Source of the DNA: Thelocarpon superellum | Lineage: Eukaryota | DNA: 20,000 nucleotides | Assembly: GCA_026025795.1 (NCBI GenBank) | Contig: JAPEUG010000054.1 | Location: 44,947-64,946, forward strand | Direction of reading: 5' to 3' | Part shown: positions 699 to 16,286 of the stretch, one piece after another | Layout of the letters: every line of letters starts with the position of its first letter | Position numbering within the stretch: the stretch's first letter is position 1 | The notes under the pieces: generated by a model | The model's input: only the letters and a program-made list of their open reading frames with translations | Told to the model about the DNA's origin: nothing | Database searches by the model: none | Position numbers and translations under genes: made by a program

Positions 699-3600
699 AT
701 GCCGCATCCGCACGCGCAGCTGACAACGAGCAACATGCCCGGCCTGACCCACCTGAGTACCACCACGAAATGCCCAGCGTTGACCCCCGAGTTACAACGC
801 ATCCAGGACAGTCACGCCGTCCTTGCCTCCACCGGTTGCTCCGCGAAATTCTGTCAAGCGGGTCGTGCGGTCCACACAGATGAACCCCGCGTCGGCGAAA
901 ACCGTACCCTAGCCGCCGTGCTGCAGGAAGCCGAAGAGTTTCTACGCGACCTCCACCGTGACGGTGTTTTACCTTCCGACGACGCCCTGACCGCGCGTCT
1001 CCAACATGTCCGCGAGGAGATATGCCTGGGTGCCATCGACGGCCTCAGTCGACAGGATCAAGTACAATGCGAGCTGGGCGGAAACTGGACGCAAACTCCC
1101 CAAGAACTCGAGTTTGGTCTCCGTCGCGCCTGGCGGAATGCGAGGAAGTGCATCATGCGGTCCCACACAGAAGAGCTCAAGTGAGTTGCCTCGCGTCGGC
1201 GATCGTGTCCCTACCCGCATTGGCCACCGATGAGGGCGCCAGGCTGATTGCATCTCTAGGCTCTGCGACTTGCGTCACGTCAACACCAGCGCTGGCATGG
1301 CCCGGGCGTTGATCGACGGCATGGTACAGGCCTTCAATGGCGGCACCATTCAGCCCACCGGTGCGTCGGCCCTTTCAGCTCTGCATCCGGTGGGGGACAA
1401 GCGGATGATGGCTGACCTTGTCCGCTAGTTTTTGTCTTTCCGCCCCGCACCCCCAATAGCCGTGGACCTATGATCTGGAACCATCAGATCCTCGCCTTCG
1501 CCGGGGTAAGGGCCTACGTCGCTCGTGCAACCCCATATCAGAGTGCCGCTAACAGGGGTGATGCAGTATCAAACCGACGACGGCTCAGTGCTTGGTGATC
1601 CGAAGAATGTTGAGCTGACCAACTCCTTCATCGAGCTCGGCTGGCTGCCCCCGAAAAGCCGCAGCCGCTGGGACCTCTTGCCTCTCGTTACCATGGCTGA
1701 AGGGGATCTCCCCGTCATCGCCGAGCTACCTGCGAGTCTCCGCACGCTGGTCCCCATCCGCCACCCTCATTATGGCACCGCCTTCGAGGAGCTGGACCTG
1801 AAGTGGGTGCCGTTTCCGGCCTTGACCCGACTCGGCTTCGATATTGGCGGCGTGCAATACACTGCCGCTCCATTCGTCGGCTGGTATGCTTCCCTCGTCA
1901 CATCTCCGCCCTGGACTGACTGAGTGCCCCGTACAGGTTCATGGACGCCGAAATCGGAGTGCGTAACCTGGGCGACACGAGTCGCTATAACGTCTTACCA
2001 GATGTTGTCCGCGTCTTGGGCCTGACGGACGGGAAGCTCGAAGGTGGCGTCGAGGGCTTCGACGATCTGCCCGAGTATGAGCGACTCATGATGCTGTCAC
2101 GGGCCCAAGCCGAGCTCAACTACGCCGTGCATTGGTCCTTTCTCCGCGCCGGCGTGAGCATGTCGGACTCGATGACAGCCTCGACCAAGTGGATTCGCTA
2201 CGACGACGCCTTCCAAAAGAAGCACGGCTATCGACTGCCGTCAGATCCATACTGGCTCGCCCCCCCGCAGGGTTCGATCATCCCACTTTGGCACCGCGGC
2301 GCCGCGCCGAACTACCAGCCCAAACCTTTGATCGCGCGGCACGTCGAGGACCCGATCAAGGCGTGGGGACGCGAGAAGGACGCCTGGTCCGTCTTCACCA
2401 CACCCTGTCGCACGCTCCCGACGCGGCCGGAAGCGGGCGACGCCACGAACCGCATGAACGGTCGCCAGTCGGCGTCGACCGGCTTGAATGTGCGTGCGAC
2501 GGGCCGGTCCAGTGTTCCGACTCGGGTCGTTCCGCGACTGCAGATTGGGGTGGAGCGTCATATTACTCGCTCACAGCCGAAGCCGAAGACCAAGATCGTG
2601 GTCCGCTTCTGCAGTGAGGGCACTATGGCGGAGAATCTTGCGGGCAAGCTACATGGTCGCGTCCAAGAAATGATCAAGGCATCGGATCATGTGGACCTCT
2701 GTCCTCGCGTCGAGCCGCTCGACAATGTCGGCGCATCAGATCTCACGGCGGACAAGATCTTCCTCCTGGTGATCAGCTCCACTGGGCAAGGTGCCATACC
2801 CGCCAATGGATTGGCTTTTGCAGCGCTTTGCGGAACTCTTGCGTCAAAAGCCGTCTCGGACGGTAGCGAGTCCTTCCGATTCGACATCTTCGGCAACGGC
2901 GATAGCCGATACTCCACGACCTATAACGGTGGAGCCAGCAAGATGGCCGCTCATCTCCGGTCCGTTGGAGGTGTGGCGCTGGCCGGTGGCCTCTTTGAAG
3001 GCGACACGGCGGCCCAGGGACTCCCCTTATCGGCACTGAACGCGTGGTGGGACACGCTCAAATCCAGCCTGATGGACGTCGTGGGCAAAGGACTCCAAAC
3101 GCCGAGCTCGAGCGGGAGCGCGAGTAGCAGTATGGGGAGCGGAACGGAGGGGGTCCTGAGCGATAGCGACACCTCCATGCTGAGCTCCCGATCGTCGGTC
3201 ACGTCCTTGGACCGCTTCTTCCTCCGTGGACCGGAGCTCCTGTCGCACTTTCGCGACGCCGTCTTGGTCAAGACTTATCCCGCCGTGCCGCTCCGAGAGC
3301 AGGGATCGGTGCGGGTAACTCTGGACATTGGGCTGGAGTCCTACAAAGAGATGAGCTGCATTCAGATACTGCCGGTGACGTCCCCGGCAAAGGTGATGCG
3401 CGCCCTTGATGCGCTGTGTGTCAAGCCTTGGACGCCGGTGGAGCTTGGCTTGGACGCGGCCAAGAATCCATCCTATGCTAGATTCTTGAGGGAATACGTG
3501 GATCTCGAGCAGCCGTTTGTGGGGATGAAGTGGTGGGACCAGCTCGACGTGAACGCGCGCAAGCGTCTGGATCGGCAGACACTACGCGCACGACCGGTGC

Positions 3601-4406
3601 TGGAGGTGCTCGAACATCTCCAGGCACAGGACGTGCTCACCTACGCGCGATTCGATGACGAGTTCCAGCGGGGGCTATGTCTAGATATGGCGGTCCTCCA
3701 CCCACGCACCTACTCGGTCGCATCGTCGCTCCGGTTCCTCTGCGCGAATGGGACACACGGCTCCAGCAACAAGGTCGATGTGGTGGTCAAGGTACATCCG
3801 CAGGGACGATTCAGCAGCGTCTTCCTAAACGAGGCGTCGACTGGTGCATGTCTCCGATATCGCTTCGTCGATGGACATTCTGGTGACCGACTTCGACAAG
3901 ACACGTCGGCGGCGCTCATCATCGTGGCGACAGGTGCCGGGTTTGGCCCGGTGCGGTGCCTGCTCCAACAACGCATCGCCGTGACACGGGAGCACTTGGC
4001 AGCGGGTGGTTCCCTCCCTTCGCGCAAGTCGGCCATCTCGCTCTTTCTCGGCCTGCGACGCTCCGACGTGGCCATGACGATCCCCGTGGTGCGCGAAGCG
4101 TCGTCGTTGAACCTCATCGACATGCTTTCCATCGTGCCGAGCAACGAGAACAAGACCCGCGTGCACGACAAGGTGATGTCGGAGAAGTTTGCGTCACACG
4201 TGCGACGAAAGTTGTTCGATGGCCTGACGATGGTGTACGTCTGCACGAACCTGGACGCGGCCAAGGCGATCGCAGCCGCATTTGATGTCTTGGTCGGCGG
4301 CAACGAGAAAGGCATGACAACGCCGTCGACGGCAGGCACCACTACGAAGAAGATGAACAAGACGAAGATGATGTTGGGTGAACGATACATTGAGGAGGTC
4401 TTCTAG
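699..4406 (+). CDS. NOS: Nitric oxide synthase-like protein (oxygenase + flavodoxin + FAD/NADPH reductase), ~1148 aa. Exons 699-1180, 1260-1360, 1429-1505, 1567-1883, 1937-4406; alternative start ATG at 735
   Basis: Four GT-AG introns with branch sites join the frames (3447 nt CDS). Oxygenase motifs: CSAKFC (Cx4C), AWRNARKCIMR (heme-thiolate; NOS AWRNxxRCxGR), IWNHQILAFAGY, GDPKN, PFVGWFMDAEIGVRN (NOS GWYMxxEIG), DPYWLAPP. Reductase motifs: SSTGQG and FGNGDSRY (FMN), RTYSVASS (FAD), ATGAGFGP (NADPH), C-terminal RYIEEVF. Confidence 0.92.
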
Positions 4407-4470
4407 GCGTTTTCTATGACCAGGGTATTTCCCGAGCGACTCCAGGAAATCCTCATCTGGGGACGGAGCA

Positions 4471-4590
4471 GAAACGGAACGGAACGGAACGGAACGGAAC
4501 GGAATGGAAAGGAAGAACATGAAGGAAGGAAGCAAAGGAGGAAAGGAGGAAAGGAGGAAAAGGAGGAACGGGATGGGAGAAAGGAGACGA
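4471..4590 (+). repeat. (GGAAC)x5 microsatellite followed by a purine-rich GGAA/GAG low-complexity tract downstream of the NOS stop
   Basis: ggaac x5 at 4476-4500, then ggaat ggaaa ggaag and an almost purine-only tract. Confidence 0.9.
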
Positions 4591-5189: not shown

Positions 5190-6202
5190 CTAGGATGTTC
5201 CAAGCGCCGCCATGCGCTGGAAGCAGTTGGCATAAGCCACGTGCACCTCGGGCACCTCGAAGTGATACTCCTTCAACTTCGTCACTAGCTTGGTGGTGTC
5301 GAGCTCGCAATTGCTGCGGCCAGCCTTGAGGATCTTGCTCTGTTCCTCGAGTGAGAAGTTCTTCCACGTGAAGCTCGGTCGGACGTATTGCTTGAAAAGC
5401 GCCAGCACCTCGTTGTGCGAGATGGCGCCCGGGTTGGTGAAGTTGTACACCCCGATCTCCTTGTGCTCGGCCATCAAGATCGAGGCCGGGAGCAGGTCGT
5501 GCAGGATCGTGTTGGAGTTGGGCACGTCCACCACGCGTTCGTACTTGGCGATCTTTGTCACAAACGAGCGCGGGTGGAGGTCGTCCGATACCGGCATGCG
5601 CAGCCTCAGGATGAGACAGTTCGAATACGTCTGCATGATCTGTTTTGCGTGTCAGGCTCGATGCTCCTGGCTGGCCACGGGCCGATGACCCCTACCTCTT
5701 CCACCTTGGATTTGGTGGCGGAGTAGTACGAGCCGGCGAAATTGGCCGGGTCCGTTTCCACGTAGCCCGGCCCTCCGATCGGATGCTTGTCGTCATAGGC
5801 ATAGATGCCTGCCAGGTTCCTGTCAGCAATCGAGATGGACGTCCACGGACGGATGGGATGGCTTCTCGACTGACAGCCCGTTGCAAAGACGGTGATGTGG
5901 ATATTCTTCAGAAAACAGCAGTCCGTCAGGTTCAGCGTGCCAATGACATTGCTCCGAACCGTGGCCTCCTTGTTGTCCTCGCACCAGTCGACATTGGGCC
6001 GGCCGGTGCAGCCAGCACAGTTGAGCACATGCGTGGGCTTCACTCGCTCGAGCTCGGCCAAGACCGACTCGCGGTTCTCCATCCGCACGGTCGTCGAGTG
6101 CACCGTCTCGCCTTGTTTGGTCAAGAGCTCCTTGAGGTGGCCAGCCACCCACCCTGCACCACCCCAAATCAGGAAGATATTGCCTTTGGACGAATCGACC
6201 AT
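5190..6202 (-). CDS. NRS/ER: NDP-4-keto-6-deoxy-glucose 3,5-epimerase/4-reductase (nucleotide-rhamnose synthase, NRS/ER; RmlD-like fold), ~296 aa. Exons 6202-5875, 5808-5696, 5639-5190
   Basis: GGAGWVAG Rossmann motif, TGRPNVDWCE, ATGCIY, YSATK (YxxxK), LRLRMP, NFTNPGAISHNE and RSNCELD all match plant/fungal NRS/ER. Introns 5874-5809 and 5695-5640 give an 891-nt CDS. Confidence 0.93.
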
Positions 6203-6721
6203 GGTGACAGCACTTCTGCGGAAATGCCCAAAAGGAGGAGACGAAAAATCGGTCGGCGGACTCGACTCTGGTGCAGGAGAGTCGTGGCAGCCCCCCCGCT
6301 ACCGAGCGGGACAGCGTCGTCAGGCGAACGAGAACCCCACGCCGGTACCCCTAACGACCCGTACCCGTGCCTGAAAGCATGGGTGAAGGCCGCCCCACGC
6401 CAGCGACCGACGCCGGACGCAGCACAGGCGCCAAGCCAAGGCTAATAATAATAATGGCATGGGGTGCTCGCCTTCTCACCCCCGGGCTCTCACACCTCTG
6501 AAACCAGCAGCATGGCGACCGTGTTCGTACTCGTGCTACAGGCCCACGCTCCCTACACCGGTGAGTGGATCGCATGAAATCGTCACGTATCTCTTCGCCG
6601 TTGGAAAGGCGTCCGCACTCGAGCCAGTCGTCGACATTGTCACGCCTCACTCCTCCATACCCATGTGGCGAGCGCACACTGGCACAGCGACGCGGGTGCT
6701 ACACTCGAAAGGGGCCCAACT
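6203..6721. promoter_or_regulatory. Putative bidirectional promoter between NRS/ER and DUF5672-like paralog A
   Basis: 519-bp interval between head-to-head start codons. No specific binding site identified. Confidence 0.5.
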
Positions 6722-7852
6722 ATGAGCGGGCTGCCCACGACCCACGAGTCTTCATGGCGCCAGTCCTTTCAGTCGACCCTGGCGCTGGCGTCCATGGGGA
6801 TGAAGAAACCCCGCTTCTACATCGCCGCCACCGTCGGTGCGCTGCTGCTCCTCTTGTTGTATGTCGCAGCCAGGCCAGGCCCATGTCCCGCGTCTGCCGC
6901 GAGCAGCCACTGACCGCAAAGCAGTTGGACCATACACACGTCCGACACCTCTCTGGCCGAACTCGAAGTGCCATCGGTGACGCTGGACTTTCATTCGTCG
7001 CCCTTCAATAGCAGCAGGCTGGCGCTGCTGGTGGAGAACCGGAAGATGCCCAATCTGGTGCCGCTGATGCTGCACATGATGTCGGTCGTGCCGCCAGAAT
7101 GGCGGTTCAACTTCATGGGCTCGGAGGAGTCGGTGGCACAAATGAACGGCTCGGCCGCCATCCGACGGCACGTGAGCAGCGGCAAGCTCGACCTGACCCT
7201 CGTGCCATCCAACATGAGCGTCGCGAGTGCAGAGGAGATCAGCCAGTTCTTCACCACGCTGTGGCTGTACGACACGGTGCTGGCGCCGGCCGAGCACCTC
7301 TTTGTCTTCCAGACCGACAGTGAGTGCGACCTCTCCTCCGCTCGTCCGGCCGCGAGGCAGACGCTGATCCACAATGCACCAGGTATCCTCTGCGCCAACA
7401 GCGAGCAGAGCCTGAACGACTGGATCGATTACGACTGGATCGGGGCGCCATGGATGCCAGAAGACCGATGGGGCGGCAACGGCGGCCTCTCCCTGCGACG
7501 AGTGAGCGCGATCAAGGAGATTCTGCAGCACCAAGAACGGCGAGTCGACTCGCAGGCCGAGGACGGCTGGCTCAGCGACCGACTTGCGGCGCGACCCGGC
7601 GCGCGCGTTGCCAACGCGAGCGAATCCGGCCGCTTCTCCAGCGAAACGCTCTTCAGCGAGCGACCGATGGCCTACCACATTGGCGGCTCGGGCACGATGA
7701 TGCCCGCCGCCTTGCACCCCAAGAAGAACCGGCAGCAGATCTACGAGTACTGTCCCGAGTTCAAGCTGATCTTGGAGGTCATGGATGTCGATGGCCGCAT
7801 CCCCGAGGGATGCGCCCTGGGAGACACGCATTTTGATGACGGATCGTATTAG
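6722..7852 (+). CDS. Type II membrane DUF5672-like protein A (putative glycosyltransferase), ~333 aa. Exons 6722-6858, 6925-7319, 7383-7852
   Basis: Basic KKPR followed by a hydrophobic anchor (FYIAATVGALLLLLFW). Motifs FQTDSILCANS, YDWIGAPW, GGNGGLSLRR, EDGW, PMAYH and YCPE, which I recognise as typical of DUF5672. Introns GTATGT..CAG and GTGAGT..CAG; 1002-nt CDS. Confidence 0.85.
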
Positions 7853-10403: not shown

Positions 10404-11873
10404 ATGATGAGCGCGGAATATCCTGCTGGCATGTACCATCAGTCTCCTCGACGAGGCGACTTTGCGCTGACTAGCGGGCGGTTCAGCGGCGGGGCCGAAT
10501 GGTGGCGGCAGCCATCTCGCGGTGGAAGGGTCGGTGCTGAAAGGCACCACCCAGTTCGAGCCGCTGCCGGAAGTTAAGAACATCATGGTCACGGGCGGCG
10601 CGGGCTTCATGTACGACACCCCCCGACCATGCTCCAGATCAGATCCAGATCCAGAATCAAATCGTCGGCGTTCCGGGCGACCTTGATCGATCGCTGCTCG
10701 GGACGGACTCGTGCTAATAGCGCTGCCTCCAATTAGTGCGAGCTGGGTGGTGAGGCACCTGGTGCTCACTTATCCCCATGCCTACAAAGTGGTTTCGTTC
10801 GACAACCTGGACTATTGCTCTTCGCTGAATAACACGCGAATGCTGGACACTCGCAAGAACTTTGCCTTCTTCCACGGGGATATCAAGCGGTCCGAGGACG
10901 TGGTGCGGTGCATCAAGATGCACGAGATCGATACCATCATGCATTTTGCGGCGCAGTCGCACGTCGACCTGAGCTTTGGCAACTCCTATCGCTTCACCAG
11001 CAACAATGTGTACGGCACGCACGTGCTGCTGGAGTGCGCCAAGGAGATGAAGATCCGCCGATTCATCCATGTCTCTACGGATGAGGTCTACGGCGAGATC
11101 GATGACCAAGATGAGGATCCGATGGAGAGCAGCCTGCTGGCTCCCACCAACCCCTATGCCGCCAGTAAAGCGGCGGCGGAGATGCTGGTGAATGCGTACT
11201 GGAAGAGCTTCAAGCTGCCGGTGATCACGGTGCGGAGCAACAATGTATATGGGCCCCACCAGTTTCCCGAGAGTAAGCCTGTCCTTCCCTCCTTCTCTTC
11301 TGTCCCCCTCGCCTTTGCTCTTGAGCTCCCATCCTCGCCGTCGCCATGGCCTGATGTCTGACCGGTGTGGCAGAGGTGATTCCCAAGTTTGCCTGCCTGC
11401 TACAACGGGGCTCGCCCTTGATCCTCCATGGTGATGGCAAACACACGCGGCGCTATCTTTACGCGAGCGATGCGGCAGATGCCTTTGACACGGTCTTGCA
11501 CCGCGGCTGCCTCGGCCAGATTTACAACGTGGGCTCGCGCGACGAGATCTCCAACTTGCAGCTCTGCTCTGAAGTGCTCCGTCTCTTCCACCTGCCGCAC
11601 GACACAGAGGAGGAGCGGGCCAAGTGGATCACGCACTCGCGCGATCGGCCCTTCAACGACCGACGCTACGCAGTGAACGCGACGAAGCTACATCAGCTCG
11701 GATGGGAGCAGAAGGTCTCCTTTGCCGAGGGACTCGAGACGACGGTCGCGTGGTACCGGCTTTATGGGCAGAGTTGGTGGGGCGATATTCGGAATGTCTT
11801 GGTCCCCTTCTCCTACGTCGCAGATAAGAAGGTGGTCTCCGAGGACGAGGGCGTGGATATTCCATGTCCATGA
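10404..11873 (+). CDS. UDP/dTDP-glucose 4,6-dehydratase (RmlB / RHM N-domain-like), ~394 aa. Exons 10404-10428 (via an inferred GC-AG intron), 10487-10610, 10737-11272, 11374-11873
   Basis: KNIMVTGGAGFIAS, DNLDYCSS, HFAAQSHVD, STDEVYG, TNPYAASK, RSNNVYGPHQFPEK and DRPFNDRRY. Introns 10611-10736 and 11273-11373 are canonical; the first exon is less certain. Confidence 0.93.
10634..10657 (+). repeat. Short imperfect (CCAGAT)n repeat inside dehydratase intron 2
   Basis: ccagat cagat ccagat ccagaat. Confidence 0.6.
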
Positions 11874-13118: not shown

Positions 13119-14214
13119 ATGTTGCCGGGAATCTTGTCCCGGGGCGACCAGCACACGCTCTGGATCTATCTATCCACTTTGGCCCTGGTGTAGGTGACCT
13201 CTGATCGAGCGTTGCCCGCGCACGAGACGAGATGGCATGGCGCTGATGCACCGACCGCACAGATGGCTGTTTGCCGCCCTCCTCCCCTCGCCCTCGAGCA
13301 CAACCCACATGATCCAGCAAATCCTCCCCTCGGTCCGGGTCGACTTCCATCCCTCGCGCTCGCCCTACAATGAATCGAAACTGGGCCTGATGGTGGACAG
13401 CCGGCCGCTGCCGCAACTGGCACCGTTGTTGTTGCACATGATGTCGGTGGCGGGCCCCGACTGGAGGTTTCTGTTCCTAGGCTCCAACGAGAGTGTGGCG
13501 CTCGTCAACACCAGCTTTGCCGTGCGCCAACAGCTCGAGGCCGGTCGACTGTCGCTGCGAGAGATGCCTGAGGAGAACGTGACAACGAGCCAGGAGCAGT
13601 ACAGCCAGCTGTTCACCAACCTAGCCTTCTACGAGAGCCTTCTCCCGGCCGAGTTCTTGTGGGTCTTTCATGCCGACAGCGTCATCTGCGCCAACTCGGA
13701 GCAGAATCTCGACGATTGGCTAGAATACGACTGGGTCGGCGCGCCATGGTATGTGACGAGGACTGCGACTCGCTGTGGCCTCGCCTCTTCGATACAACGG
13801 GGAGACTGACGCACTTTCGGCAGGGACGAATCCAAAAGCGTTTCGTGGAACACGCGCAAAGGAAACATGCCAGGCGGCGATGGCGGATTCTCACTGCGGC
13901 GCATCTCGCGCGTCATGGAAGTCCTACGCTTCCAAACCCGGTACGTGGAGGACATCGATCCAGAGGACGAGTGGCTGGCGGCGCGCATCGGCAATTTGCC
14001 CAATGCCAAGATGGCCTCGCCGAATGATGAGCGGCGGTTCTGCGTAGAGGATCAGTGGTATGAGCAGCCCATGGGCTATCACCTGGGCCGCGTGCTGGAA
14101 GCCAGCGGTGATCCTATCTGGAACGATCCCCAACGACGACGCGCCATCTTTGACTATTGTCCCGAGGTCAAGATGGTCCTGCCCATGGTGAAAGTCAACC
14201 GCACGTGTTTCTAA
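13119..14214 (+). CDS. Type II membrane DUF5672-like protein B (paralog of 6722-7852), ~315 aa. Exons 13119-13189, 13263-13748, 13824-14214
   Basis: N-terminal hydrophobic anchor (LWIYLSTLALVWLFAALL). Aligns by eye with paralog A: LLLHMMSV, WRFLFLGS, FHADSVICANS, YDWVGAPW, GGDGGFSLRR, EDEW, PMGYH, YCPE. Introns 13190-13262 and 13749-13823; 948-nt CDS. Confidence 0.85.
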
Positions 14215-14352: not shown

Positions 14353-16286
14353 TCATCTTCCGTGCCGCCAAATAGCATCAGCCATCTTAACCACCTGCGC
14401 CATGTGCGCGACGTCATGGACGCGCACGATGTCCGCGCCGCCAGCCACCGCGGCGCTGATGGCAGCCGCAGTACCCCAGATGCGATCCCTGGGCTCCGCG
14501 ACGCCCGTGATCCTCCCAATGAAGGCCTTGCGACTGGGTCCCACCAGCCACGGCAAGCCCTGTAGGCCTGACCAGTCGCGCAGGAGGTGGAGGTCGCGTA
14601 GCAGCTCGAGGTTCTGCGCCTGCGTCTTGGCGAACCCGATGCCCGGATCAACGAGGATGCGCCATCGTCGTATGCCTGCCGCCTCCGCGGCTTGGACTCG
14701 TGCGGAGAGCTCGCGCGCCACGGTAGGGACGATCCCCTCGGGATATTGCGTCAGTTGCGTCATGGTGCTCGGTGTTCCCCGCATGTGCGTCAGGCATATG
14801 GACGCGCCTAGCTTGGCGACCGTCGCGAGCATCGCGCGGTCCAGCGTGCCGCCCGAGACGTCGTTGACCAGGTCCGCACCGGCGCCGACGGCCTCCGCCG
14901 CGACCCGCGCCCGGTAGGTGTCGATGCTGATGCAGAGAGGACGGGTTCGCGCTGCGGATCGCAATGCCCGAATCATGGGTACGGTGCGGCGAAGTTCTTC
15001 CTCTTCACTGACCTCCATCGCACCTGGTTTGCTCGACTGCCCGCCGACGTCGACGATCGTGGCGCCAGTGACGTCGAGTAGCTCCATCGTGCTGCTGGCC
15101 AGGGCATCCACGTCCACGTTGAAATTATCGCCGCCGTCAGAGAAGGAGTCAGGCGTGACGTTCACAATTGCCATGACTTGCGTCGAACGGTTTTCCGCTA
15201 GAGGAGTCAGGGGTGGTAATGATGGAGAAACAGGCGTAAGTGTCGATGTAGCGGACTCAGAACCTGGTAGAGACTGTAAAGTGGTTTGAAAGGTTGTCAA
15301 TGGGTGCGGCGAGGGGTGGAAGCCGTTCGGAATAAGGCTGCCTGGTCAGTCCTAATCCTGCCCTGCGACAAGGTGTTACTTACTCGCAGAGTGGACGAAG
15401 GACGAATTCTCGCTCCAGCATCAGCGGATGCGGGATTGTGAGCCTTGAGTGCTGCATGGAAAGGTGGTCATAGAGCAAGATATCCAAGTCGATGTTCCGA
15501 GGGCCTTTATCAACCACTTTCTGCCGACCCATATGCCGTTCGATGTCTTGAAGCTCTTCAAGCAGCTCCAGAGGGCTCAGCTCCGTTGTAATCTAATTGT
15601 CACCGCGTTAGACGCACCGCGGGCCACCGTGTACCATCGACTTCTATTTCGACTAACCTCACCAACACCATTTACAAACGGAGCTTGATCGACGACGTAC
15701 ATGGCCTCGGTTTCGTATAACGAGCTGGTCCGGGCCAGCGCAATTCCTCGTCGTTCCATCTCACGACATGCCCGTTCAATCATCGCAATCCGATCTCCCT
15801 CATTGCTTCCTAGGCCTATGAAGGCCCGTGCTTTTGGTGTGGATGAGGTGGTATCATTGTTGGCGGCTGAGGTGGGCAAGGGTCTTCTCGCGGCCACCCC
15901 GGAGGATTTCCTGTCGTGTGCGACTGATTCCGTACAAATTGGCCACCTTCTAGAATGTTGAGGGATCTGCAATAAGGGTTCATCTCGATAGAGTGCCGCG
16001 TGTCTGGAGCACAAACGTCAGCGAATTGAAACACCGCTACGCACAATGGCGGGCTAAGCAGATTGACATACGAGCAAGAGCCTTCCCCGCCGCTCTTTTC
16101 GGCTTCGCGATAGTCAGCTGTGTGTTTCAACGATGACACGCTTAGACATGATTGGCTTCCAGGCAAAGCTAAGCTACGTCCTGGTCTGAGCAGTGCGCGC
16201 CGGCGCTCTGTGTGGAAGGATGAATGTGGCCAGAGCTCGAATGAGCGACGCAGAGACCATCGCAAGAGCAGTGGAAACTCGAGCAT
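14353..16286 (-). CDS. FOL1: Folate synthesis protein, HPPK-DHPS fusion with a probable mitochondrial presequence, ~584 aa. Exons 16286-16072, 16003-15658, 15592-15384, 15337-14353
   Basis: HPPK motifs: AFIGLGSN, SSLYETE, GPRNIDLDILLY, IPHPLMLEREFVLRPL. DHPS motifs: NVTPDSFSDGG, SIDTY, NDVSGG, DPGIGFAK, GPSRKAF, RVHDV. Three GT-AG introns give a 1755-nt CDS; the first exon is less certain. Confidence 0.92.

Follow-up and report, generated by a model that had tools for sequence, protein, structure and literature searches.

The window analyzed here, a stretch of 20,000 nt of DNA from Thelocarpon superellum, holds a gene for a protein that resembles nitric oxide (NO) synthases (NOS). Judged by its sequence, the gene is a member of a NOS-like family of Dikarya that is already annotated as NOS and biochemically nearly unstudied, and it appears neither specially animal-like nor a rarity: its product would be an intact, full-length, eukaryotic NOS-like protein. 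We consider NO synthesis from arginine the likely activity, and we put the probability that the protein is an NAD(P)H-driven, calmodulin-independent NOS acting on L-arginine at roughly 0.6. This reading is carried by the demonstrated gene structure, the domain folds, and the family-wide conservation of catalytic and cofactor residues; binding of heme, zinc, pterin, and flavins, as well as dimerization, substrate, product, nucleotide preference, and expression, we infer. Positions follow the numbering of the window, and residue numbers are those of the database protein P0001 unless stated otherwise.

The proposed enzyme would combine an N-terminal heme-thiolate NOS oxygenase domain, a floppy linker, and a CPR-type FMN/FAD/NAD(P)H reductase. 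NAD(P)H would reduce the FAD, and the electrons would then travel via FMN to the heme, probably that of the partner subunit in a dimer. Aided by a pterin stacked on Trp420, the heme would activate O2, and L-arginine held by Glu319 would be converted via N-hydroxy-arginine to citrulline and NO. The flow of electrons would proceed without a calmodulin gate.

Gene structure and residence in a fungal genome

The gene comprises five exons on the + strand, running from 699 (or 735) to 4406. When joined, these give 3447 nt with a single terminal stop and code for 1148 residues, of which residues 13-1148 are identical, letter for letter, to P0001 (1136 residues). The latter is annotated in a metagenome-assembled genome (MAG) of Thelocarpon superellum and carries only the label "hypothetical protein" in the database. 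A preliminary description of this DNA had proposed a spliced coding sequence of about 1148 residues and had located the codons of a Cx4C motif, the heme Cys, a substrate-binding Glu, and a pterin-stacking Trp; the joined exons give exactly such an open frame, and all motif codons lie at the positions that it gave (Table 1). The first in-frame ATG is found at 699, and the deposited model begins at the ATG at 735. Both have an A at -3, and either may be the start codon.

All four introns run from GT to AG, none has a length divisible by 3, and in each the only CTRAY match lies 12-17 nt ahead of the AG. The exon products match the Pfam NO_synthase profile in order, at profile positions 5-72 (exon 1), 77-108 (exon 2), 135-236 (exon 4), and 238-352 (exon 5), and the 25-residue product of exon 3 gives no Pfam match by itself. 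The alignment of P0001 with the intronless NOS of B. subtilis runs ungapped through all four junctions; the gap closest to one of them is a single residue at D212, three residues past junction 3.

The same introns can be followed in other genomes. We compared P0001 by tblastn with 16 related loci (L001-L016) obtained from a scan of metagenome contigs. Residues 4-1136 are uninterrupted in one frame in two of them (L001:6001-9306 and L005:6001-9306), seven (L002, L003, L004, L006, L012, L015, and L016) show breaks near residues 149-155 and again at 182/183, and six (L007-L011 and L013) break at 314-316, with a second break at 441 in L007. The partial locus L014 shows no break. Spliced alignment placed an intron of L002 inside the Lys codon of EELK/LCDLR in phase 2, which is both the place and the phase of intron 1, and it found intron 2 (LPT/VFVFPP, phase 1) and intron 4 (Trp codon of GW/F, phase 2) at the same place and in the same phase in 6/6 loci examined. 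Intron 3 was seen in 0/16 related loci. As a side observation, intron content varies by lineage: two loci are intronless, seven have introns 1 and 2 only, and six have intron 4 only, and the window gene has introns 1, 2, and 4 plus a private intron 3.

The recurrence of introns 1, 2, and 4 in related loci, together with the MAG annotation, supports the earlier suggestion that the introns are spliceosomal in form and that the gene lies in a fungal genome. The gene is intact and resident. That it is instead a decaying or silent relic, or an artifact of assembly or contamination without a working protein, strikes us as very improbable. Its source is a MAG and parts of the heme domain are of low confidence in the structural model, yet splicing yields an open frame of 1148 codons, no catalytic or cofactor residue has been lost, the introns sit at family-typical places, and none of the prokaryotic genomes searched combines the family's motifs with a relative (0 of 19 pattern matches confirmed; see below). 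DNA contigs of the probable source run cover 715-4462, introns included, and small contigs from a second, independent study match at 97-100%, two of them crossing introns 1 and 3 without any difference. Strain variation points the same way: of 11 variant calls, those at residues 28, 78, 80, and 1052 amount to three silent changes and the replacement P80A, and the remaining seven (five replacements and two silent) fall in the unconserved residues 4-20.

Two further observations concern the ends of the gene. The stretch 715-824 occurs in the probable source run in two versions, with depths of 98.7 and 48.8, that differ at 5 sites, 4 of which alter protein residues 4-20; these could be two strains or two alleles. 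Furthermore, microsatellites lie on both sides of the gene (628-675, 4473-4514, and 4506-4568), with (CCCTCG)x8 directly upstream of the start codon and (AACGG)x8.4 and a GGAAAGGA array directly after the stop.

Oxygenase domain, reductase, and linker

Pfam NO_synthase (PF02898) matches the whole protein at 291.7 bits, against a cutoff of 22.7. Solved NOS oxygenase domains match the heme domain at E about 1e-61, this oxygenase part being the only one matched by solved structures. Among these, the scores are nearly level: 211 bits for B. subtilis NOS, 208 for nNOS (rat/human), 204-206 for iNOS, 201 for syNOS, and 197 for eNOS.

Residue conservation was read from an alignment in which 69 family members stand beside 36 other NOS, 25 of them full-length and 11 bacterial and limited to the oxygenase domain. 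At the heme site, Trp133 and Cys139 are both present in 69/69 family members and in 36/36 other NOS. Glu319 is kept in 68/69 and 36/36, respectively, and within the family Arg323 (68/69) and Trp420 (69/69) are kept as well. Of the residues that surround the guanidinium and pterin sites, the window protein retains Glu319, Trp314, Arg323, Arg330, and Gln202. We take the stacking role of Trp420 from iNOS Trp457, and we read the pterin pocket through the presumed structural roles of iNOS W455/W457/F470/R375. At the N terminus, the Cx4C motif is widespread in the family (Cys35 in 67/69, Cys40 in 66/69), and hhalign pairs its two cysteines with C108 and C113 in the profile of the animal clade (ASTGCxxxFCQ on animal CxxxxCxGS), so that Cys35 and Cys40 would be zinc ligands. 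A complex prediction with two copies of residues 1-450, two hemes, and one zinc, in which the family alignment was not used, returned a score of 0.00, which speaks neither for nor against a dimer.

The C-terminal 600 residues are a far-diverged diflavin reductase. Flavodoxin_1 passes in Pfam with 33 bits, NAD_binding_1 stays below threshold (E 0.011-0.021), and FAD_binding_1, present in 35/107 scanned non-family representatives, is not detected in the window protein; Pfam misses it because the reductase has diverged. With phmmer, the reductase matches yeast CPR at 1e-10 and the sulfite reductase flavoprotein at 3.5e-4, and NOS reductases only at E 0.011 or worse. Structure and profile comparisons reach further. 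An AlphaFold2 model built from a 30-row alignment (mean pLDDT 67.9) is well predicted over residues 532-698 and 736-1100; its poor segments are 1-53, 292-332, 413-451, 465-529, and 699-735. In Foldseek, the whole model finds full-length syNOS 9q05 (E 2.3e-39, 1168 columns), the reductase finds the nNOS reductase 1tll, CPRs, P450 BM3, and SiR-FP (about 1e-21 to 1e-20, 15-19% identity), and the heme domain finds nNOS structures (about 1e-19 to 1e-20, 26-27% identity).

Against 14 animal-clade NOS, hhalign gives probability 100 over 966 columns with 27% identity for the full length, and probability 99.9 with E 3.9e-34 over 544 columns and 21% identity for the reductase alone. The FMN motifs fall in register (FCSxGTxAE of the family with YATETGKSE of the animals, SSTGQG with TSTFGNG, and FGNGDSRY with FGLGSxAY), as do those for FAD and NADPH (RTYSVASS with RYYSISSS, GAGFGPVR with GTGIAPFR, VCTN with VCGD, and RYIEEVF with RYHEDIF). 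The fused diflavin reductase read from the letters in the preliminary description is thus confirmed by the Foldseek matches at about 1e-21 and by the hhalign probability of 99.9 with motifs in register. Within the family, Ser907 (68/69), Gly980 and Gly982 (69/69), Cys1083 (68/69), and the terminal Phe/Tyr (67/69) are kept; for the roles of reductase residues we presume correspondence with CPR Y140/Y178/R597. Position 1050 is Asn in 64/69 family members and varied in other NOS, and position 1055 is Arg in 66/69 versus Tyr in 21/25 others.

The linker between both halves, which is where animal NOS have their calmodulin helix, is hardly conserved. Its column identity is 0.17-0.44 over residues 461-540 (mean values of 0.17-0.31 for the linker 461-535) versus 0.6-0.97 in the heme domain. 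Calmodulin-type motifs fall into the basic 1-8-14, 1-5-8-14, and 1-5-10 classes; a scan for these found 0 in the linker of P0001, and 2, 0, and 1 of 30 family rows carry them, respectively, versus 12, 12, and 13 of 14 animal-clade rows. Moreover, the window protein ends at the FAD-stacking Phe and has no regulatory C-terminal tail, whereas the iNOS-like representative P0160 extends 32 residues more. Since both the motif and the tail are missing, electron transfer would proceed without calmodulin gating.

A number of points weigh against an arginine-dependent NOS. The second pterin-pocket Trp (position 418), present in 35/36 others, is Pro in 67/69 family members; position 141, the Gly after the heme Cys in 28/36 others, is Met in 62/69; and the Trp six residues past the heme Cys (position 145) occurs in 36/36 others and in 0/69 family members. 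The Asn of PFNGW (position 312) is replaced by Ile, Met, or Val, with Asn or Ser elsewhere, DHH has become DS(L/M), and the substrate-carboxylate Tyr at position 315 is Phe in 60/69 family members and in 9/36 other rows. In the reductase, position 596, an FMN-stacking aromatic elsewhere (Phe in 19/25 other full-length NOS), is Thr in 58/69, and the NADPH 2'-phosphate site has SN in place of SR. The low-confidence model segments 1-53, 292-332, and 413-451 hold the Cx4C, Glu319, and Trp420 regions. With Pfam NO_synthase, 7 family members score 266-314 bits, compared with 386-604 bits in 106/107 other representatives, the exception being a 336-residue fragment with 257. In addition, the run search found no RNA sequencing runs containing the gene, the literature search found no enzymology of any ascomycete family member, and a preprint (bioRxiv 10.1101/2020.07.12.191361) states, in the text available, that functional analysis of fungal NOS-like sequences is lacking. 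Finally, L-NAME, an inhibitor of NOS, failed to reduce NO in the lichen Ramalina, as described in the accessible part of PMC6681199.

Some of these substitutions call for a closer look. According to the accessible portion of PMC6120233, nNOS Tyr588 binds the arginine carboxylate and nNOS Glu592 the substrate guanidinium. In the window protein, Val289 and Phe315 stand in for the usual Tyr, and the family also has Phe in place of Glu406. The Aspergillus branch retains Tyr289, Tyr315, and Trp366, and thus more canonical residues than the window protein. Phe315, the counterpart of nNOS Tyr588, was tried as a hallmark of the family and ruled out: it is not unique to the family because Phe is found in 18/101 other NOS rows. 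The nearest non-family rows, furthermore, carry Met141 or Arg1055 as the family does.

Could the same fold and redox chain then serve a different chemistry? The enzyme might depend on a different cofactor or act on a different guanidino or amino compound, or its product might not be free NO but, e.g., nitrite, nitrate, or a nitrosating species that is channeled into a metabolite. We regard such a changed chemistry as unlikely. Pro418 in place of a near-universal Trp, Val289 and Phe315 for Tyr, the lost Asn312, the change from DHH to DS(L/M), and an NO_synthase score about 100 bits or more under that of other NOS would all fit, as would the L-NAME result (PMC6681199) and the service of NOS in specialized metabolism in bacteria and, reportedly, Lepista (PMC10831120, in the portion available). 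They are countered by Glu319, Trp314, Arg323, Arg330, and Gln202, all kept, by the occurrence of Phe at 315 in those 18/101 other rows, and by the surroundings of the gene, which form no conserved neighbor set or biosynthetic cluster (0/7 neighbor ORFs recur in the 16 loci). A calmodulin-independent NOS acting on L-arginine is the reading that we retain.

Table 1. Features of the window: the NOS-like gene, its codons of interest and domains, and neighboring genes (ORF, open reading frame).
Feature	Position	Strand	Details
NOS oxygenase domain	921..2327	+	P0001 residues 63-444 by Pfam; four introns within
Cx4C, Cys35 and Cys40	837..854	+	putative inter-subunit zinc ligands; Cys codons 837-839 and 852-854
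WRNARKC, proximal Trp133 and heme-thiolate Cys139	1131..1151	+	heme Cys codon 1149-1151
Glu319 of AEIG	1950..1952	+	predicted guanidinium-binding; aligns with Glu of TEIG in bsNOS
Trp420	2253..2255	+	presumed pterin-stacking; neighboring Trp of other NOS is Pro418 here
Linker	2376..2588	+	residues 461-531; unconserved, low model confidence; site of the calmodulin helix in animal NOS
FMN (flavodoxin-like) domain	2589..3089	+	residues 532-698; Pfam Flavodoxin_1, model, hhalign
Ser-rich unconserved loop	3090..3200	+	residues 699-735; low model confidence
Connecting, FAD, and NADPH domains	3201..4403	+	residues 736-1136; RTYSVASS, GAGFGP, VCTN, terminal RYIEEVF
Exon 1	699..1180	+	N-terminal Cys13, Cx4C, heme-Cys loop; ends in phase 2 within Lys codon of EELK
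Intron 1	1181..1259	+	79 nt, GTGAGT..TAG, CTGAT 12 nt before end
Exon 2	1260..1360	+	101 nt, phase 1 end
Intron 2	1361..1428	+	68 nt, GTGCGT..TAG, CTGAC 13 nt before end
Exon 3	1429..1505	+	77 nt, phase 0 end; gap-free alignment to B. subtilis NOS
Intron 3	1506..1566	+	61 nt, GTAAGG..CAG, CTAAC 14 nt before end
Exon 4	1567..1883	+	317 nt, phase 2 end within Trp codon of GW/F
Intron 4	1884..1936	+	53 nt, GTATGC..CAG, CTGAC 17 nt before end
Exon 5	1937..4406	+	rest of oxygenase domain, linker, FMN, FAD, and NADPH domains; stop 4404-4406
Rhamnose-type sugar-nucleotide gene	5190-6298	-	Pfam
DUF5672 ORF	6914-7852	+	interleaved with sugar-nucleotide genes
Rhamnose-type sugar-nucleotide gene	10687-11873	+	Pfam
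DUF5672 ORF	13198-13809	+	interleaved with sugar-nucleotide genes
Dihydropteroate-synthase-type ORF	14353-15345	-	Pterin_bind 2.5e-76; 10 kb from the NOS gene

Family membership and descent

The window protein shares 38-56% identity over its full length with the annotated Dikarya family. When the exon-5 product was used in a word-indexed search, 314 of the 8000 candidates scored reached E <= 0.001. Among the best 120, which were listed, 40 carry an organism name: 36 come from genera that we take to be lichen-forming, three from Collybia, and one from Lepidopterella, in a list that is biased toward the query's relatives and toward one large lichen MAG project. The family is annotated in dozens of lichen-fungus MAGs. 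Its most basal representative, P0128, is a "nitric oxide synthase" of Aspergillus pseudocaelatus, and a search with this protein recovers family members in Aspergillus sections Flavi and Nigri, Colletotrichum, Neofusicoccum, Zymoseptoria, Cercospora, Venturia, Ophiocordyceps, Apiospora, Glutinoglossum, Acephala, and Collybia. Many of these are named nitric-oxide synthase (NADPH) in UniRef, and they are the fungal sequences cited in the available portions of PMC4160249 and PMC4778047.

The view that NOS-like sequences are only sporadic in ascomycetes, held in the preliminary description, is not supported: NOS is annotated in many Aspergillus, Colletotrichum, Cercospora, Zymoseptoria, Ophiocordyceps, and Apiospora genomes, and also in Collybia genomes and the lichen-fungus MAGs just mentioned. 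That these proteins are poorly characterized is a fair statement, going by the accessible text of bioRxiv 10.1101/2020.07.12.191361 and PMC9241723.

To look beyond the family, residues 59-464 were searched exhaustively against 1.84 billion representatives, giving 1592 matches at E <= 0.001, of which 328 reach E <= 1e-30. Among the best 150 of these 1592, 43 share 50% identity or more with the query and score 435-635 bits where coverage is full. The remaining 107 share 35-45%, with P0153 on top at 243 bits, and most non-family representatives were labeled by their Pfam architecture. The closest named relative of P0153 is the NOS of the chytrid-grade Gonapodya sp. JEL0774, followed by animal NOS at 32-36% identity. 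Among prokaryotes, 185,579 species, represented by one genome each, were searched for the two signature peptides of the family; this gave 19 pattern matches, of which 0 were confirmed.

The representatives also display a variety of architectures. The Gonapodya NOS (P0203), a relative of P0153, matches the canonical Pfam domains in full, FAD_binding_1 and NAD_binding_1 among them. In P0159, P0163, P0165, P0171, P0187, and P0191, which are among the presumably bacterial NOS, the heme domain is C-terminal and follows BFD-type [2Fe-2S] and FNR-type modules, and some presumably bacterial NOS have two cNMP-binding domains or EF-hands in front. Fusions were seen with GGDEF (P0154) and with a Ras/Roc domain (P0184).

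Two trees were built to place the family. The first (LG+G4) held the window protein and 119 rows, 31/150 having been dropped as fragments or two-piece matches. Herein, 19/19 family rows group in a single clade with SH-aLRT 100, whose stem measures 0.77 changes per site, and the animals form a separate clade of 23 rows (SH-aLRT 100) whose link to the fungal family the tree does not resolve. In the second, site-heterogeneous tree of 57 hand-picked rows, the family again forms a clade (11/11 rows, SH-aLRT 100) with a stem of 1.11 + 0.32, and it joins a polytomy with the eukaryote-type P0153, P0158, P0161, and P0188, with prokaryote-type rows nested elsewhere. P0180, weakly placed as a member of the fungal clade under LG+G4, was rejected as such: it keeps the canonical residues and moves away under the mixture model, and its grouping is treated as a long-branch artifact. 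When fungi and animals were held together, the AU test did not reject the tree (delta lnL 0.68, p-AU 0.473), nor did it when fungi were held together with 17 bacterial rows (delta lnL 5.28, p-AU 0.378). Oxygenase-domain phylogeny, which had been proposed as a check, thus upholds a distinct fungal clade and leaves both animal and bacterial affinity standing.

How animal-like, then, is this protein? As to the preliminary description, which called the gene animal-like, one half of the claim stands: the protein is a full-length fusion, and its Cx4C aligns with the animal motif. The other half falls away, as no calmodulin motif was found and there is no C-terminal tail, the heme domain scores equally against bacterial and animal NOS, and the family forms a clade of its own on a long stem. 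We thus find it distinctly improbable that the protein is a true animal-type, calmodulin-regulated NOS, little changed since the common ancestor of animals and fungi. The shared domain order, the aligned Cx4C, the unrejected fungi-plus-animals tree, and a best non-family match (P0153) whose closest named relative is the Gonapodya NOS would suit such an enzyme, but a conserved linker helix is lacking together with the calmodulin-type motif and the tail, the stems measure 0.77 and 1.11 + 0.32 changes per site, and grouping with bacterial NOS is likewise not rejected (p-AU 0.378).

Horizontal transfer into Dikarya, from a bacterium or another eukaryote, instead of descent within the opisthokonts, is improbable as well. 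A patchy fungal distribution, as it appears from the accessible parts of PMC4160249 and PMC4778047, would be in line with a transfer, and so would the loose placement in the trees, in which bacterial affinity is not rejected. However, no close prokaryotic relative turned up among the 185,579 species, with one genome each; the order of oxygenase, FMN, FAD, and NADPH domains and the Cx4C are of eukaryote/cyanobacterial type; and the family attaches among P0153, P0158, P0161, and P0188, and three of these four have Met141 or Arg1055 in common with it. The simplest story for the family would be that it descended vertically and diverged strongly.

Biological context and comparison with known systems

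The literature on fungal NOS is divided. Fungi are said to have no NOS homologues in the portions available of PMC9241723 and PMC6681199, and NOS-like sequences of Aspergillus, Glomerella, Colletotrichum, Macrophomina, and Neofusicoccum are listed in the accessible parts of PMC4160249 and PMC4778047. For the mushroom-forming side, seven NO-synthase gene candidates are mentioned for Lepista sordida in the available text of PMC6458111, and a fungal NOS is said in that of PMC10831120, citing Ito et al. 2022, to contribute to the synthesis of the fairy-ring compound 2-azahypoxanthine in this species. Lichens release NO on rehydration, mainly from the mycobiont, from a source that is described as unsettled in the accessible sections of PMC8073698 and PMC6681199.

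Within our limited literature collection we found no papers on NOS genes of lichen-forming fungi. The window gene is therefore a concrete candidate for the enzyme behind lichen NO. Its significance is not that of a new kind of gene; rather, the family has stayed intact and constrained in a lineage that forms lichens, and it is common in lichen-fungus genomes, as far as a sample biased toward relatives of the query can tell. The family's departures from animal NOS bear on regulation (the calmodulin site) and on pharmacology (the residues at the pterin and substrate ends). A wider proposal, which we put forward as speculative and on balance doubtful, is that the Dikarya family represents a diverged, calmodulin-free opisthokont NOS, canonical in chytrids, and at the same time the missing arginine-dependent source of rehydration NO in lichen mycobionts. 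If it were true, the altered pterin pocket and arginine-carboxylate site might explain the weak effect of classical NOS inhibitors in lichens.

The genes around the NOS-like gene (Table 1) hold few clues. Of the two sugar-nucleotide genes, one has RmlD_sub_bind/Epimerase matches and the other matches GDP_Man_Dehyd at 2.4e-43; together with the interleaved DUF5672 ORFs, this stretch may be a cell-wall or exopolysaccharide glycan neighborhood. A conserved gene cluster that includes the dihydropteroate-synthase-type ORF was considered and rejected, with 0/7 neighbor ORFs of the window recurring in the 16 related loci, and the pairing of dihydropteroate synthase with the NOS-like gene is probably a coincidence because it is absent from these loci. 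There, the neighbors are genes for DNA polymerase eta, GT2, GST, ankyrin, and methyltransferase proteins, which we call housekeeping. Comparison of the 7 neighbor ORFs with the 16 loci thus revealed no conserved partner or biosynthetic cluster, and the 20,000-nt window has no tRNA or Rfam matches.

Among known systems, the Aspergillus/Colletotrichum family is the closest, with P0001 being 41% identical to P0128 of A. pseudocaelatus over 99% of its length. The NOS-like proteins of Aspergillus, Colletotrichum, Glomerella, Neofusicoccum, Zymoseptoria, and Cercospora share with the window protein a common clade, the domain order, the Cx4C, and the family-specific substitutions. The window protein differs from the Aspergillus-type proteins in its host, a lichen-forming fungus of the order Thelocarpales, and in its intron pattern, which differs by lineage; it also has fewer canonical residues left than the Aspergillus branch with its Tyr289, Tyr315, and Trp366. 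P0008 of Collybia (= Lepista) sordida, a "nitric oxide synthase-like protein" of 1113 residues, is 44% identical over the exon-5 product and has the same architecture and N-terminal motif in a basidiomycete host. No purine or triazine pathway genes adjoin the window gene.

Mammalian iNOS, the animal form without the FMN-domain insert, has the domain order in common with the window protein, as well as an aligned Cx4C, heme Cys, proximal Trp, Glu, and stacking Trp, and RYxExxF at the FAD site, with 27% identity over 966 profile columns. It differs in that the window protein is without the calmodulin helix or tail, has an altered pterin pocket, and carries a reductase that is only 21% identical at the profile level. 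Cyanobacterial syNOS (PDB 9q05), a full-length NOS outside the animals, is the best fold match of the whole model at 20% identity. It has extra N-terminal domains, with a globin in the representative P0182, whose heme domain lies at nearly the same residues as that of 9q05; this syNOS-like row has Thr at both positions of the fungal Cx4C cysteines. B. subtilis bsNOS, finally, is the top-scoring solved relative of the heme domain (211 bits, residues 111-435) and, unlike the window protein, has neither the N-terminal Cx4C region nor a reductase.

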